The notes under the pieces are model-generated. The model worked only from the letters and a program-made list of their open reading frames with translations, ran no database searches and was not told the origin of the DNA. The translations under genes were made by a program, and so were the position numbers. Shown in pieces: positions 18,769 through 28,783 of a DNA stretch of 64,000 bases (within the stretch, counting starts at the first letter, position 1; every line of letters begins with the position of its first letter). The DNA is from an uncultured Acidobacteriota bacterium (GTDB lineage Bacteria; Acidobacteriota; Terriglobia; UBA7540). Location: NCBI GenBank assembly GCA_963804995.1, contig CAWDSK010000002.1, forward strand, positions 320,001 through 384,000. Direction: 5' to 3'.

Positions 18769-18840
18769 ACCGGCTTTGGTTCGCTTCGAATCACGCCGGC
18801 TGCGCAGGGTGGAGGAGCCGCAACCAAACGAGAATCATAG

Positions 18841-18972
18841 CCCTCTCCGAGGGGAGAGGGTGGACCGCAGCCGGCGTACTCATCAGCCGGGGCGGGACGG
18901 GCCTACGCCCACCGAAGGGGCAAATAGGAACAGTAAACAACTTCAGCTTCGGCCCGCAGGCGGGTGAGGGGT
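18841..18972 (+). repeat. CCCTCTCC-type REP-like palindromic repeat
   Basis: Homologous to 22776-22849 and, inverted, to 23106-23178. Confidence 0.75.
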
Positions 18973-19101
18973 CACTTTCGGGAAGTAGCTCAATATTCTT
19001 GCTAAAAAAACGAGGAGTTACGGTATTGCATTGCAGGGTGGAGTTACTCCGCATTCCATAAACGCCTGGAGTCGCACCTTCCAGCGAACGAGAGGCGAGA
19101 C

Positions 19102-20469: not shown

Positions 20470-21516
20470 TTACACCGCCGCCGCGGCGGCATTCATCGTG
20501 GCGCGCGTTCCCTTCCAAATATCGAGATAAGGTTTAAGTTCCTGCATCATGGCTTTGAACTGGGGCAGGCTGAGGGACTGCGCGCCGTCGCTCATGGCCT
20601 TTTCCGGGCAGGGGTGGACTTCCACAATCAAGCCGTCCGCGCCCACCGCCACAGCGGCGCGCGCCAGGGCCGGCACCAGGCTCTGCCGGCCCGCGGCGTG
20701 ACTGGGATCGACGATCACCGGCAGGTGCGTGAGCTCATTCAGCACCGGCACCGCGGAGATATCGCAGGTGTTGCGCGTGGCGGTCTCAAAGGTGCGGATA
20801 CCGCGCTCGCAAAGGATGATGTTGGGATTGCCGTGCGCCGTGATGTACTCCGCCGACATCAACAGCTCCCGGATGGTCGAGCTCATGCCGCGCTTCAGCA
20901 GCACCGGGCGCCGGCATTTACCCAGCGTCTTGAGCAGCGCGAAGTTCTGCATGTTGCGCGCGCCCACCTGCATGATGTCAGCGTACTCGGCGATCAGCGG
21001 AACGTCGGACTCGCTCATCACCTCCGTGACGATGGCGAGACCCGTAGCCGCGCGCGCTTTGGCCAGCAGCCTCAGCCCGGCTTCTTCCATTCCCTGAAAA
21101 TCATAGGGGGAGGTGCGGGGTTTGAACGCGCCTCCGCGCAGAATCTTGCCGCCTACCGAGGCCACGAATTCCGCCGCGGCCATGATTTGCTTCTCACTCT
21201 CCACTGAGCACGGTCCGGCCATGACCACGAACTCGTCACCCCCGATGGAAACTCCGTTAATAGGAATCCGCGTCCGCTCCTGCTTGAACTCCTTGCTCAC
21301 AAACTTATAGGGCGATGAGATTCGCATGGCGCTGGCAACCCCCGGTGCAACTTCGATCGCTTCCAGACACTCGGTCACATCACCCATTCCGATCACGCCA
21401 ATCACCACGCGTTCCTCGCCTTGGATCGAGTGGACCTTGTAACCGAACTCGCGGATGCGTTCGCAAACATGCTCGATCTGTTCCTTGGTGGCATTCGGTT
21501 TCATTGAGATGATCAT
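20470..21516 (-). CDS. aroF: DAHP synthase (class I-beta) with N-terminal regulatory domain
   Basis: [37 protein letters not shown]. Confidence 0.95.
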
Positions 21517-21532: not shown

Positions 21533-21566
21533 AAAACACAAAAGCCCACTCCATTTCGAGTGGGCT
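21533..21566 (-). terminator. Attenuator terminator upstream of aroF
   Basis: AGCCCACTC-GAAATG-GAGTGGGCT followed by TTTGTGTTTT. Confidence 0.85.
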
Positions 21567-21609
21567 GGCCTTTCTAGAATCCCTTTTTTCTTTTCAGACC
21601 AACGCCACC

Positions 21610-21681
21610 CTACTGGATCGGAGCAAAGCTCCAATACCAGTAGCTAAAGTACCTAAACGAATTGGCGTAGGTCCCGTACAT
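21610..21681 (-). CDS. Aromatic-rich leader peptide MYGTYANSFRYFSYWYWSFAPIQ
   Basis: 10 of 23 residues are Y/F/W; lies between a promoter and the terminator upstream of DAHP synthase. Confidence 0.88.
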   Translation of the reverse strand: MYGTYANSFRYFSYWYWSFAPIQ

Positions 21682-21690
21682 CAGAGGGGC

Positions 21691-21719
21691 AGTATACCGC
21701 AAGCGGTGAGAGGGCGCAA
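21691..21719 (-). promoter_or_regulatory. Sigma-70-type promoter of the aroF leader
   Basis: TTGCGC-17 nt-TATACT, 9 nt before the leader ATG. Confidence 0.7.
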
Positions 21720-21768
21720 GATTTCTGTGGGTTTAGGAGTGACTCATTTTGAGGTGCCACGGGCGTCC

Positions 21769-21897
21769 GAAGGTGTGAAGAAATAGTATTTTTACCGCGG
21801 AGGCGCTGAGACGCAGAGAAAAGGACCTTTATTTTCATTCCTCTGCGCCTCAGCGTCTCTGCGGTAAGGAGGTTTTAGACGATTTTTTCACACCTTC
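21769..21897. mobile_element. MITE (GAAGGTGTGAA...TTCACACCTTC) nested in a palindrome spanning 21751-21915
   Basis: Terminal inverted repeats; second copy at 32331-32450. Confidence 0.8.
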
Positions 21898-21967
21898 GGA
21901 CGCCCGTGGCACCTCGCATTGGGGGGGGTACGGCCAGTACACCTTGGACGTGTTAAAATAGGCGAAC

Positions 21968-22599: not shown

Positions 22600-23180
22600 G
22601 GTGACGATCTGCGGCTCCGCCGCTTGCTGTGCGGAAAGGCTGCGCCTTTCCGTGGCACGCGTGATCTAACCGACCTCCTCCGCGCCGTCTGGAAGGCTCA
22701 GCCTTCCAGACGGCGCGGAGGAGGAGAAAGTGTGTCCTCTGGACCGAAAGGGCAGACCGCTTCTTGGATCTACCGCCCTCGCCCCCTTGGGGGAGAGGGT
22801 GGACCGCCGCCGGCGTTCTCATCAGCCGGGGCGGGACGGGTGAGGGGGTCTAAGCCGTGAATATCGGAGATAGGATGAAGTTCGTATCTCTCCGCCGCAA
22901 GATTCGGTCACCGGCGCACCGCGTAGTGCAAAGTGATCGAGCGCGCCAGTTGCACGTCGCCCCCACCGAAACCGAGCCAGCGGCAAGGTGCTGGCTGCAA
23001 CGTTCGGGAAGCACCGGAGATGTGGGTGGAGAAAGTGCTGCGCGGCGTAGGGTCGGTGCCGGAGGTCTTGGCTGAAGGGGTGCCGGAGAGCGCCTCGAGC
23101 CTCGACCCCCTCACCCGGCCCGCCCCGGCTGGTGAAAGCGCCGGTTGCGGTCCACCCTCTCCCCCAAGGGGGCGAGGGCA
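22600..23180. repeat. Cluster of REP-like palindromes
   Basis: Near-perfect hairpin CTCCTCCGCGCCGTCTGGAAGGCT/AGCCTTCCAGACGGCGCGGAGGAG and an inverted CCCTCTCC-type pair. Confidence 0.75.
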
Positions 23181-25689: not shown

Positions 25690-25848
25690 ATGAAGACCTG
25701 CCCAACTTGCCAGCAGACCTACTCCGATGATGTGGAGTTCTGTCCGCGCGACGGGGCGGAGCACGCTGCTGTAGCGGCGGTCTCCGACCGCCGACGGCGA
25801 TCGGAGATCGCCGCTACAACCGCGCTGAGGATTTACCGCTGTGACTGA
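25690..25848 (+). CDS. 52-aa zinc-ribbon ORF, the detached N-terminus of the kinase, containing a REP insertion
   Basis: MKTCPTCQQTYSDDVEFCPRDG; out of frame with 25841. Confidence 0.6.
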   Translation: MKTCPTCQQTYSDDVEFCPRDGAEHAAVAAVSDRRRRSEIAATTALRIYRCD

Positions 25849-28783
25849 GATCGACGCCCATCTCGCTGCGAGTCTTTCACGCCGTTTCCGGCTTATCCGG
25901 CAATTGGGCGCGGGCGGCATGGGAGCGGTCTTCCTCGCCGACCAGATCGGTGTGGGCAACCGTCCCGTGGCGCTCAAAGTCCTGAACCGCAAGTTGCTGG
26001 ATGACCCTGAGTTCCTGCTGCGCTTTCAGAGTGAAGCGGCTTCCACGGGGCGCATTCATCACCCGAACGTCGTCACCATTTACGAATCCGGCCAGGCCGA
26101 TGACGGCACGCCCTACATCGCCATGGAGTACCTCGAAGGCGAATCCCTCCGTCAGGCCCTCGCGCGGCGGGGCGCGCTTCCCGTTGCGGAAGTTGCGGAT
26201 ATTCTCCGGCAAGCGGCGCGGGGCCTGAACGCCGCGCACAAGCTGGGCATCATTCATCGCGACCTCAAACCCGATAACATTTTCCTGACATATCCCGACG
26301 ACGACGCTGTAGCGCGGGTGTCCCCACCCGCGAACGCGCCGGTGTCCCCACCGGCGAATGTTCAGGTAAAACTCGTCGATTTCGGCATCGCCAAGCTGCG
26401 CGAATCCGGCCCACACACACAGACCGGCATGGTCCTCGGCACGCCTGCGTATATGTCATTCGAGCAGGCATCCGGCATGAGGAGCGATGAACTCAACGCG
26501 CGCTCTGACATCTATTCGCTTGGCGTGGTGACTTACGAAATGCTCACCGGCCGCACGCCGTTTCATTCCGGCACGCCGGTCGGGTACCTGCGCATGCACA
26601 TGCAGGAAGACCCGCCGCCATTCCGCACCGTCAAACCGGATTTCCCCGCGCTGCCCCAACTAGAAAGTGCGGTGATGAAGGCCCTCACCAAGGACCGCAA
26701 CCAGCGCTACAGTTCGGTGTTGGAATTTGCACAGGAGTTCGCACAGGCAGCCGAAGCCGGTTCTCACATTGCTGCACAGCCCGAGGCGCAACGGCAAGCC
26801 ACCAAGACTCAGCCGCAAACCACCGTCACGCCTGTACCCAAGACAATTGTTCCCGCTGCCGTGGACGGCACGGTTGCCGCCAAAGCCATCCCCGAAGCTG
26901 CTCACCCCTCACGACGAAAATGGCTCGTCACCGGGTCCCTTGTCGTTTTGCTTATTGCCGGAGCCGGGGGCTTCTGGTATCGGGCAAGGTTCGGATGGAG
27001 ACCGGCACGAGGACAAGTTGAGTCTGCTTCCGCTGTGCCCTTTAGCCCGTTCGTAATCGAACATACACTTGCGGGCGACAGCGGCGAGGTTATATCCGTC
27101 GCCTTCAGCCCTGACGGGAAATTGCTTGCCTCGGGTGGCAGGGACAAGACGGTCAAGCTCTGGGACGTGGTCTCTGGGACGCTGAGGAAAACGCTGACCG
27201 AGACCACCTGGGGAGGGGTTGGTCCTGTTGCCTTCAGCCCGGATGGCAAGCTCCTGGCCTCTGGAAGTGACGCCGGACCGATTAAGCTCTGGGACGTGGC
27301 CTCTGGGACGCTGAGGAAAACGCTTAGCGGACACAGCGTTGTCTACTCGGTCGCCTTCAGTCCGGATGGCAAGCTCCTGGCCTCTGGAAGTGACAACGTT
27401 AAGCTCTGGGACGTGGCCTCTGGGACGCTGAGGCAGACGGAGAGCGGACACCACGGCCTTGTCAACTCGGTCGCCTTCAGCCCGGATGGCAAACTCCTGG
27501 CCTCCACAATCATTGAGTTTCCCAGTCAGGATGGGAAATGGCTGGCCTCCAGAAGCGTTGACTTTATGCTCTGGGATGTGGCGTCCGGGACGCTGAGGAA
27601 AACGCTGACTGACTCCCACATGGGGTTTTCCCTCGCCTTCAGCCCTGATGGAAAACTCTTGGCTTCGGGAAGCGGTGACAAAACAACAGTCAAGCTCTGG
27701 GACGTGGCCTCCGTGATGCTGAGGAAAACGCTCGCTGGGCACGAAGACTCTGTCGACTCGGTCGCCTTCAGCCCTGATGGAAAACTCTTGGCTTCGGGAA
27801 GCGGTGACAAAACAGTCAAGCTCTGGGACGTGGCCTCTGGGACGCTGAGGCAGACATTGACCGGACATAACTCATGTGTCAATTCCGTCGCCTTCAGCCC
27901 GAACGGGAAACTGTTGGCCTCCGGGAGCGCCGACAAGACCATCAAACTATGGCGGCGTGAGGAAAATATCACTGGTTCAACCGGACGAGAGACCGGGGTC
28001 GAAGCCACAACCTCGCAAATGGTCCGAACCCCAGGAGAAATACGGGAGAATGCGAAAGATGGTCTCAGGTATGTTTGGATTCCACCCGGGACGTTCATGA
28101 TGGGCTGCTCGCGAGGAGACAACGGATGCATGGACGACGAAAAACCATCACACCGGGTGACCATCACCAATGGTTTTTGGATCGGGCAGACGGAGGTTAC
28201 GGTCCGGGCCTATAAGCGCTTCGCGGCGGCCACGAGGCGGCAAATGCCACGTGAACAGATTCGTGACGAGCCACCGCCCAATCCCGGGTGGGGTGATGAG
28301 GCCATGCCCATTTTCAATGTGACATGGGGTGATGCCCAAGCATATTGCAGTTGGGCGGGCGGGAGGTTGCCGACCGAAGCCGAGTGGGAGTATGCGGCGC
28401 GTGGTGGGAGCACCACAACGCTTTATGGACCGCTGGATGAAATTGCATGGTACCGTGGCAACAGTGGCGGCCAGAGCTTAAACGAAAAAGTTTACGGCAT
28501 GCACGAAGTGGGCCAGAAGCGCGCCAACGGATTCGGGTTGTACGACATGCTGGGTAACGTTTGGGAATGGGTGAACGACTGGTACAGCCCGAACTACTAC
28601 CACACCAGTCCGTCTCAGGACCCTGCAGGACCCGAGAGCGGGACAGAGCGAGTTCTTCGCGGCGAGTCCTGGTTCAACAATGCCAGTGACATTGGCGTAT
28701 CTGGCCGCAGCAGGGATGAGCCAAGCGGAAGGGAAAGCGGCTACGCAGGATTTCGTTGTGTCGGAAGAGTGTTTGCTCCCTAA
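25841..28783 (+). CDS. Ser/Thr protein kinase - TM - WD40 propeller - FGE/SUMF1-like domain
   Basis: GAGGMG, HRDLKPDN, DFG; seven VAFSPDGKLLAS repeats; RLPTEAEWEYAARG, DMLGNVWEW, GFRC. Confidence 0.93.
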   Translation: MTEIDAHLAASLSRRFRLIRQLGAGGMGAVFLADQIGVGNRPVALKVLNRKLLDDPEFLLRFQSEAASTGRIHHPNVVTIYESGQADDGTPYIAMEYLEGESLRQALARRGALPVAEVADILRQAARGLNAAHKLGIIHRDLKPDNIFLTYPDDDAVARVSPPANAPVSPPANVQVKLVDFGIAKLRESGPHTQTGMVLGTPAYMSFEQASGMRSDELNARSDIYSLGVVTYEMLTGRTPFHSGTPVGYLRMHMQEDPPPFRTVKPDFPALPQLESAVMKALTKDRNQRYSSVLEFAQEFAQAAEAGSHIAAQPEAQRQATKTQPQTTVTPVPKTIVPAAVDGTVAAKAIPEAAHPSRRKWLVTGSLVVLLIAGAGGFWYRARFGWRPARGQVESASAVPFSPFVIEHTLAGDSGEVISVAFSPDGKLLASGGRDKTVKLWDVVSGTLRKTLTETTWGGVGPVAFSPDGKLLASGSDAGPIKLWDVASGTLRKTLSGHSVVYSVAFSPDGKLLASGSDNVKLWDVASGTLRQTESGHHGLVNSVAFSPDGKLLASTIIEFPSQDGKWLASRSVDFMLWDVASGTLRKTLTDSHMGFSLAFSPDGKLLASGSGDKTTVKLWDVASVMLRKTLAGHEDSVDSVAFSPDGKLLASGSGDKTVKLWDVASGTLRQTLTGHNSCVNSVAFSPNGKLLASGSADKTIKLWRREENITGSTGRETGVEATTSQMVRTPGEIRENAKDGLRYVWIPPGTFMMGCSRGDNGCMDDEKPSHRVTITNGFWIGQTEVTVRAYKRFAAATRRQMPREQIRDEPPPNPGWGDEAMPIFNVTWGDAQAYCSWAGGRLPTEAEWEYAARGGSTTTLYGPLDEIAWYRGNSGGQSLNEKVYGMHEVGQKRANGFGLYDMLGNVWEWVNDWYSPNYYHTSPSQDPAGPESGTERVLRGESWFNNASDIGVSGRSRDEPSGRESGYAGFRCVGRVFAP

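Follow-up and report, generated by a model that had tools for sequence, protein, structure and literature searches.

The 64,000-nucleotide stretch of genomic DNA analysed here (the window) comes from an uncultured bacterium of the class Terriglobia and carries, on its minus strand, a DAHP synthase gene (aroF) preceded by a short ORF rich in codons for Phe, Tyr and Trp. This arrangement raises the question of whether ribosomes translating the short ORF decide the fate of transcripts that approach aroF and, if so, which of the three amino acids they report on.

Organisation of the aroF locus

A check of the sequence found all of the elements proposed in an initial annotation of the region where they had been placed, on the minus strand of the window (Table 1). 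The downstream gene had been taken for a DAHP synthase, and this was confirmed: its product scores well above the cut-off of profile NF006421 (496 bits; cut-off, 335), also matches TIGR01361, and contains the Pfam domains PF18152 and PF00793, with a ferredoxin-like regulatory domain at the N-terminus. The gene forms a single-gene unit, and the next gene converges on it.

Table 1. Features of the aroF leader region, in the order of transcription.
Feature	Coordinates	Strand	Basis or remark
Putative -35 hexamer TTGCGC	21714–21719	-	Matches consensus at 3/6 positions; TTGC-type conserved in the genus
Putative -10 hexamer TATACT	21691–21696	-	17 nt from the -35 hexamer; 9 nt before the leader ATG
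Leader ORF, 23 codons + TAG	21610–21681	-	ATG at 21681, stop ends at 21610; 5 Tyr, 3 Phe, 2 Trp
Region 1, outer protector (anti-antiterminator) strand	21659–21674	-	Codons 3–8; predicted pairing with 21609–21596
Inner leader hairpin, candidate pause hairpin	21610–21643	-	Codons 14–23 + stop; arms 21643–21637 and 21616–21610
Region 2, antiterminator 5' strand	21596–21610	-	Starts on the final base of the leader TAG
Region 3, shared strand (antiterminator 3' arm and terminator 5' arm)	21558–21571	-	Pairing
Predicted intrinsic terminator	21535–21566	-	Terminator search; 9-bp stem 21566–21543 and T-rich tail
aroF, type I-beta DAHP synthase, 348 aa	20470–21516	-	ATG at 21516; profile matches, domain content

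The regulatory domain of the aroF product has an Ile at the position of Ser31 of the Thermotoga maritima enzyme (1rzm). In an alignment, residue 31 is Ile in 132 of 133 members of the aroF clade, and Ser or Met in all 21 paralogues. Because this Ile replaces a residue that matters for inhibition of the T. maritima enzyme by Tyr, the aroF isozyme may differ from its paralogue in feedback ligand. The second DAHP synthase of the genome (54% identity) has no leader directly before it and is apparently the last in a run of ORFs (G000:C5:195027-200045, plus strand) that, named from their translations, resemble trpC, trpF, trpB, trpA and a short chorismate mutase.

The promoter proposed for the leader was upheld in part: hexamers of its type, 17–18 nt apart, recur at all 24 loci of the genus, but it fails a promoter consensus scan, which returned 0 sites and left TTGCGC/TATACT below threshold. 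At the genus loci, which were found via aroF homology alone and not through leader content, a TTGC-type -35 hexamer is spaced 17 nt (22/24) or 18 nt (2/24) from the -10 hexamer, which in turn lies 9 nt (23/24) or 8 nt (1/24) before the leader ATG, and it is on this conservation that the putative promoter rests. Nine nucleotides between hexamer and ATG leave no room for a Shine-Dalgarno sequence and, with a -10-like hexamer 8–9 nt ahead of the ATG at every genus locus (24 of 24), translation of the leader probably does without one. Genome-wide, a rough test for leaderless genes returned a spacing histogram that was almost flat. Two other start codons were rejected, a longer start (TTG, 21702) that lies inside the promoter and a GTG (21549) inside the terminator.

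Just upstream of the putative promoter lies a palindromic element (21745–21920) that is a dispersed, REP- or MITE-like repeat, of which blastn gave 192 segments across the genome when matches in either orientation were included; it is not shared with the genus aroF loci that were compared. A GC-rich palindromic intergenic repeat has more copies at 22760–22850, 23100–23180 and near 18800–19050. On the plus strand, the window also carries a 980-aa ORF (25841–28783) that reads, from its translation, as a Ser/Thr kinase with WD40-like repeats and a formylglycine-generating-enzyme-like domain.

Distribution of the leader among Terriglobia

Homologue searches covered 41 relatives and 301 genomes of the class, 152 of which had a match at E ≤ 1e-120. 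The orthologous loci examined numbered 135 (55 returned by the searches and 80 picked down the class ranking); L030, whose gene begins past the end of its contig, was removed, leaving 134 including the window. Leaders were called by a fixed rule, namely an ORF of 7–45 aa with at least four F/Y/W residues in 10 codons and a terminator within 120 nt. Leader and terminator were called together at 100 of the 134 loci, so that the conservation of the leader ORF and its aromatic codons, which the initial annotation had proposed to look for by aligning the aroF upstream regions of relatives, is borne out. Calls were made at 24/24 loci of the genus (23/23 when the window is set aside), 31/35 in the rest of the family and 45/75 in other families (f4, 11/17; f6, 19/30; f7, 5/8; f8, 7/7; f9, 2/3; f12, 1/4; f13, 0/2; f3, 0/4), and the 34 loci left uncalled include several near misses. 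Of 80 named loci in a second set, 67 were called, but this set overlaps the first and is not independent of it.

The same rule called 1 of 670 dinucleotide shuffles and none of 20 paralogue loci, the latter being a weak control in that at least this genome's paralogue sits inside a gene run. None of the 20 best phylum-level matches, 17 of them from outside the class, was called. The aroF tree leaves out one genus locus, which had a frame offset. In it, a clade of 138 tips (support 0.97) unites the leader-bearing genes; it contains none of the paralogues, and five of the 20 phylum-level loci fall within it.

Phe is present in all 100 called leaders, Tyr in 96 and Trp in 95; 92 hold all three and one lacks both Trp and Tyr. 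Two loci (L048 in genome G172 and L059 in G284) have a leader shortened by an early stop with the terminator kept, and may be natural regulatory variants or sequencing errors. Five loci of family f4 (L028, L029, L125, L130 and L135) have longer leaders of 35–55 codons, in which the antiterminator strand is made by the last codons and not by the sequence after the stop.

Coding character of the leader

The nearly leaderless, 23-codon ORF described in the initial annotation is present with the composition claimed for it, and specifies the peptide MYGTYANSFRYFSYWYWSFAPIQ. The 7.55-Mb genome holds 82,795 ATG ORFs of 7–40 aa, and no other one has eight or more aromatic residues that make up at least 35% of the peptide, a threshold picked after the leader was known. 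A rough search of the genome for further leader attenuators brought up five more candidates, none of them convincing.

Within the genus the leader has 23 codons at 23 loci and 21 at one, with 5–10 aromatic codons of all three kinds in each. Across the 23 leaders of equal length, the ATG, the TAG and residues A6, S8, F12, W17 and P21 are invariant; Y14 is kept in 22, position 16 is Tyr or Phe in all, and at position 15 Arg occurs in 16 leaders and Trp in seven. Because W17 and Y16 both sit in the inner hairpin and codon 15 specifies Arg in 16 of 23 leaders, part of the conservation of these two residues may be structural. Outside the genus, length and residue order vary, while 33% of the 1,581 leader residues are Phe, Tyr or Trp, with Trp at 7.3% in the 76 leaders.

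That the ORF is translated is suggested by how its length changes. In an alignment of 41 family sequences (13 of the 24 genus loci and 28 of the 31 called loci of other genera, with L044, L050 and L052 left out) all 41 sequences show a net length change in the ORF that is divisible by three, against nine of 41 for the spacer behind it. Codons for Trp occur 148 times in frame against 17 and 16 times in the other two frames, and those for Tyr 204 times against 1 and 41, although these counts are partly circular as the leaders were called on their in-frame F/Y/W content. Phe codons are TTT:TTC 235:59 in the leaders and 304:732 in the aroF genes.

Mutually exclusive RNA pairings

Sequence and comparison together indicate three mutually exclusive pairings, a protector (regions 1:2), an antiterminator (2:3) and a terminator (3:4). 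The pairing of regions 2 and 3, put forward in the initial annotation as an antiterminator exclusive with the terminator, is backed by covariation at the family level. The hairpin over the aromatic codons and stop also has its arms as had been described, with a folding energy of -22.7 kcal/mol, but the switch anatomy had been drawn without the outer protector helix, which was missed. Since the inner hairpin shares only 1 nt with the antiterminator strand, it cannot alone be the anti-antiterminator. The protector helix forms in a model of the nascent RNA at 90–115 nt, and codons 6 (GCC) and 8 (TCG) do not vary, even synonymously, in any of 23 genus leaders.

The covarying stems that had been anticipated are found across the family, in the form of compensatory changes, but not within the genus, where all stems are 97–100% paired, hardly vary, and have values reached by 78–500 of 500 shuffles. 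In the 41 family sequences the antiterminator is 95.5% paired and has 11 cells changed on both sides (shuffle mean 2.9), protector and terminator together have 12 (shuffle mean 2.7) and the inner hairpin has 38 (shuffle mean 17.2), each reached by 0 of 500 shuffles and exceeding all slid controls; the counts are of cells and not of independent changes, and the shuffling takes no account of kinship. For the protector strand 90.5% of cells are paired, and for the terminator 99.5%, with two pairs showing changes on both sides. A strand complementary to the terminator 5' arm gives a duplex of ≤ -10 kcal/mol at 93 of 99 anchored loci, a figure that comes without a shuffle comparison.

The fold was modelled with the ribosome at successive codons, either at an early checkpoint, with the RNA ending before the terminator 3' arm, or at equilibrium in the full-length RNA. 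At the early checkpoint, a ribosome on codons 2–12 leaves the antiterminator in 23 of 23 genus loci, one on codons 13–22 in 15–20 of 23 with the 5' part free and in 23 of 23 with it blocked, and one on codon 23 or the stop in none; untranslated RNA is antiterminated in 15 of 23. In the full-length RNA with the 5' part held unpaired, antitermination concentrates at codons 3–4 and 12–17. The latter hold the conserved F12, Y14, Y16 and W17, and stalls there antiterminate 12–18 of 23 loci; with the 5' part free to re-pair, only 2–6 of 23 antiterminate at codons 13–17. Dependence of the fold on ribosome position is backed by the early-checkpoint and 5'-blocked models and not by the full-length model in which the 5' part is free. 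When it is not translated, the full-length RNA favours the terminator at 22 of 24 genus loci, while that of the window favours the antiterminator (terminator probability 0.02). The models firmly support termination with the ribosome at the stop, and support the other ribosome states only under assumptions. A default-off state would need kinetics, because untranslated RNA favours the antiterminator in the window and, at the early checkpoint, in 15 of 23 loci.

Interpretation and alternatives

The locus has an upstream ORF rich in the end products of the pathway and conserved in frame, an intrinsic terminator, and an antiterminator that excludes it and is conserved in the family. Its conservation, its frame-keeping length changes and its covariation give good support to the reading first made of it, as ribosome-mediated attenuation of aroF, and the element is very probably a classical transcription attenuator that responds to shortage of aromatic tRNA. 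Searches for other kinds of control gave no match for TrpR in the 92% complete genome, and none for the T-box riboswitch (RF00230) in either the window stretch or that genome. An Rfam scan of the leader stretch returned 16 matches at E ≤ 5, none of which reached its gathering score; they are only weak hairpin matches, and no leader family (Trp_leader, Phe_leader or others) or riboswitch family is among them.

Under this attenuation reading, transcription would start 0–3 nt before the ATG and ribosomes would translate the leader with no Shine-Dalgarno sequence to guide them. A shortage of charged Phe-, Tyr- or Trp-tRNA would make the ribosome stall on the aromatic-rich leader; stalled early, it would free region 2 and hold region 1 away, so that the antiterminator forms and transcription continues into aroF. 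A ribosome that reaches codon 23 or the stop would mask region 2 and the terminator would form. In untranslated RNA the protector would fold first, which would also lead to termination.

Which amino acids act as inputs is judged from codon content. Integration of all three is plausible, given that Phe, Tyr and Trp occur together in 92 of 100 leaders, and we lean slightly towards each of the three being effective. A fuller proposal, that the leaderless uORF, conserved through much of Terriglobia, is a three-input gate (opened when any of Phe, Tyr or Trp is short) for a dedicated second DAHP synthase with possibly different feedback specificity from the housekeeping copy, has in our estimate an even chance of being correct. 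Nested within attenuation is the narrower, less probable option that Phe, or Phe and Tyr, alone set the switch, the Trp codons being kept for the hairpin or too few to matter. Most genus leaders have a single Trp codon, paired inside the inner hairpin, and Phe is the one residue found in every called leader. The Corynebacterium glutamicum leader aroR contains Phe-Tyr-Phe yet senses Phe and not Tyr, according to PMC11802643. Against this narrower option, the Trp share noted above persists beyond the genus, in 76 leaders with different downstream sequences and hairpins, and both Trp and Tyr codons are concentrated in frame, with the partial circularity already stated.

More distant explanations change the trigger or remove the switch. 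TnaC acts by nascent-peptide arrest that senses a free amino acid, and a comparable arrest sensing a free amino acid or pathway metabolite, a ligand-binding RNA or an RNA-binding protein would each dispense with tRNA shortage. The length and structure of the leader RNA, and the invariance of A6, S8, W17 and P21 within the genus, speak for such a trigger; we nevertheless consider it improbable, as peptide length, order and C-terminus vary across families with aromatic richness alone persisting, the invariant non-aromatic codons are those that pair, and the Rfam result above is negative for families at the gathering score and for leader and riboswitch families at E ≤ 5. Still less credible is a constitutive or merely damping terminator behind an ORF that encodes an independent small peptide or is a by-product of T-rich sequence. 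T-rich RNA does readily give Phe and Tyr codons, but the conserved strand complementary to the terminator 5' arm with its compensatory changes, the length changes that keep the frame, and leader codons that match the end products of the pathway of the downstream enzyme all count against this reading.

As a tRNA-responsive attenuator, the leader would show one way in which Terriglobia regulate entry into the shikimate pathway. These are abundant soil bacteria, whose attenuators are described in PMC2965389 as nearly all without assigned function. The roughly 100 natural variants can be used for building an Rfam family, and for asking what number of codons of each type is required in an attenuator with several inputs. 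Should all three amino acids prove effective, the element would be a compact counterpart, made of RNA only, to TyrR/TrpR control in Escherichia coli, as well as a ready-made pan-aromatic biosensor.

Comparison with known systems

The enterobacterial trpL, pheL, thr and ilvGMEDA leaders share with the Terriglobia leader an ORF with cognate codons and the protector/antiterminator/terminator layout. The Terriglobia leader differs in having no Rfam leader match, in controlling the entry enzyme of the common pathway, in being apparently leaderless, and in its mixed Phe, Tyr and Trp codons in place of runs. Response to more than one amino acid has precedent, in that the thr and ilv leaders sense several. 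Both of these operons are listed as attenuated in PMC1183508.

Nearer in function is the aroR leader of C. glutamicum, a Phe-Tyr-Phe peptide before aroF detected by RNA-seq (Mentz et al. 2013, PMC4046766), which attenuates aroF and responds to Phe, not Tyr (PMC11802643 and PMC11525245, summarising Neshat et al. 2014). In both systems an aromatic leader peptide lies directly upstream of a DAHP synthase gene, and stalling raises transcription, or would do so in Terriglobia. The two differ in that aroR belongs to another phylum, has Phe-Tyr-Phe with no Trp reported, and responds to Phe only; the comparison is by motif, not by sequence. Attenuation of a DAHP synthase gene through an aromatic leader was therefore already published, and the novelty attached to the element in the initial annotation was overstated.

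Other DAHP synthase genes have predicted leaders. In Acholeplasma, the uORFC-13-1 motif is a predicted uORF with an intrinsic terminator found solely upstream of aroF (Brewer et al. 2021, PMC8632094); unlike the Terriglobia leader it has an RBS and a U-run coding for at least one Phe, and counts 24 representatives. The string 'Acidobacteri' is absent from the main text of that paper. Putative attenuators precede aroA(I-beta) in Thermus thermophilus and others (Table 7, PMC1173090), and are alike in placing a predicted terminator/antiterminator ahead of type I-beta DAHP synthase operons, but a leader peptide is not described there, and the portion of Table 7 considered contains no Acidobacteria. 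Shewanella aroF and aroH leaders are listed as predictions in PMC2659441. The Terriglobia aroF leader is not described in the portions covered of PMC2965389, PMC4833913 and PMC1183508. More generally, searches of the open-access literature returned no description of this leader in Acidobacteria; comparative surveys of attenuation such as those of the Gelfand and Lyubetsky groups are subscription papers and lie outside that scope. Set beside these systems, the mechanism is a textbook one and the element is apparently unrelated to known members: the Terriglobia aroF leader is a real, well-conserved and apparently uncatalogued family of probable attenuators of known mechanism.
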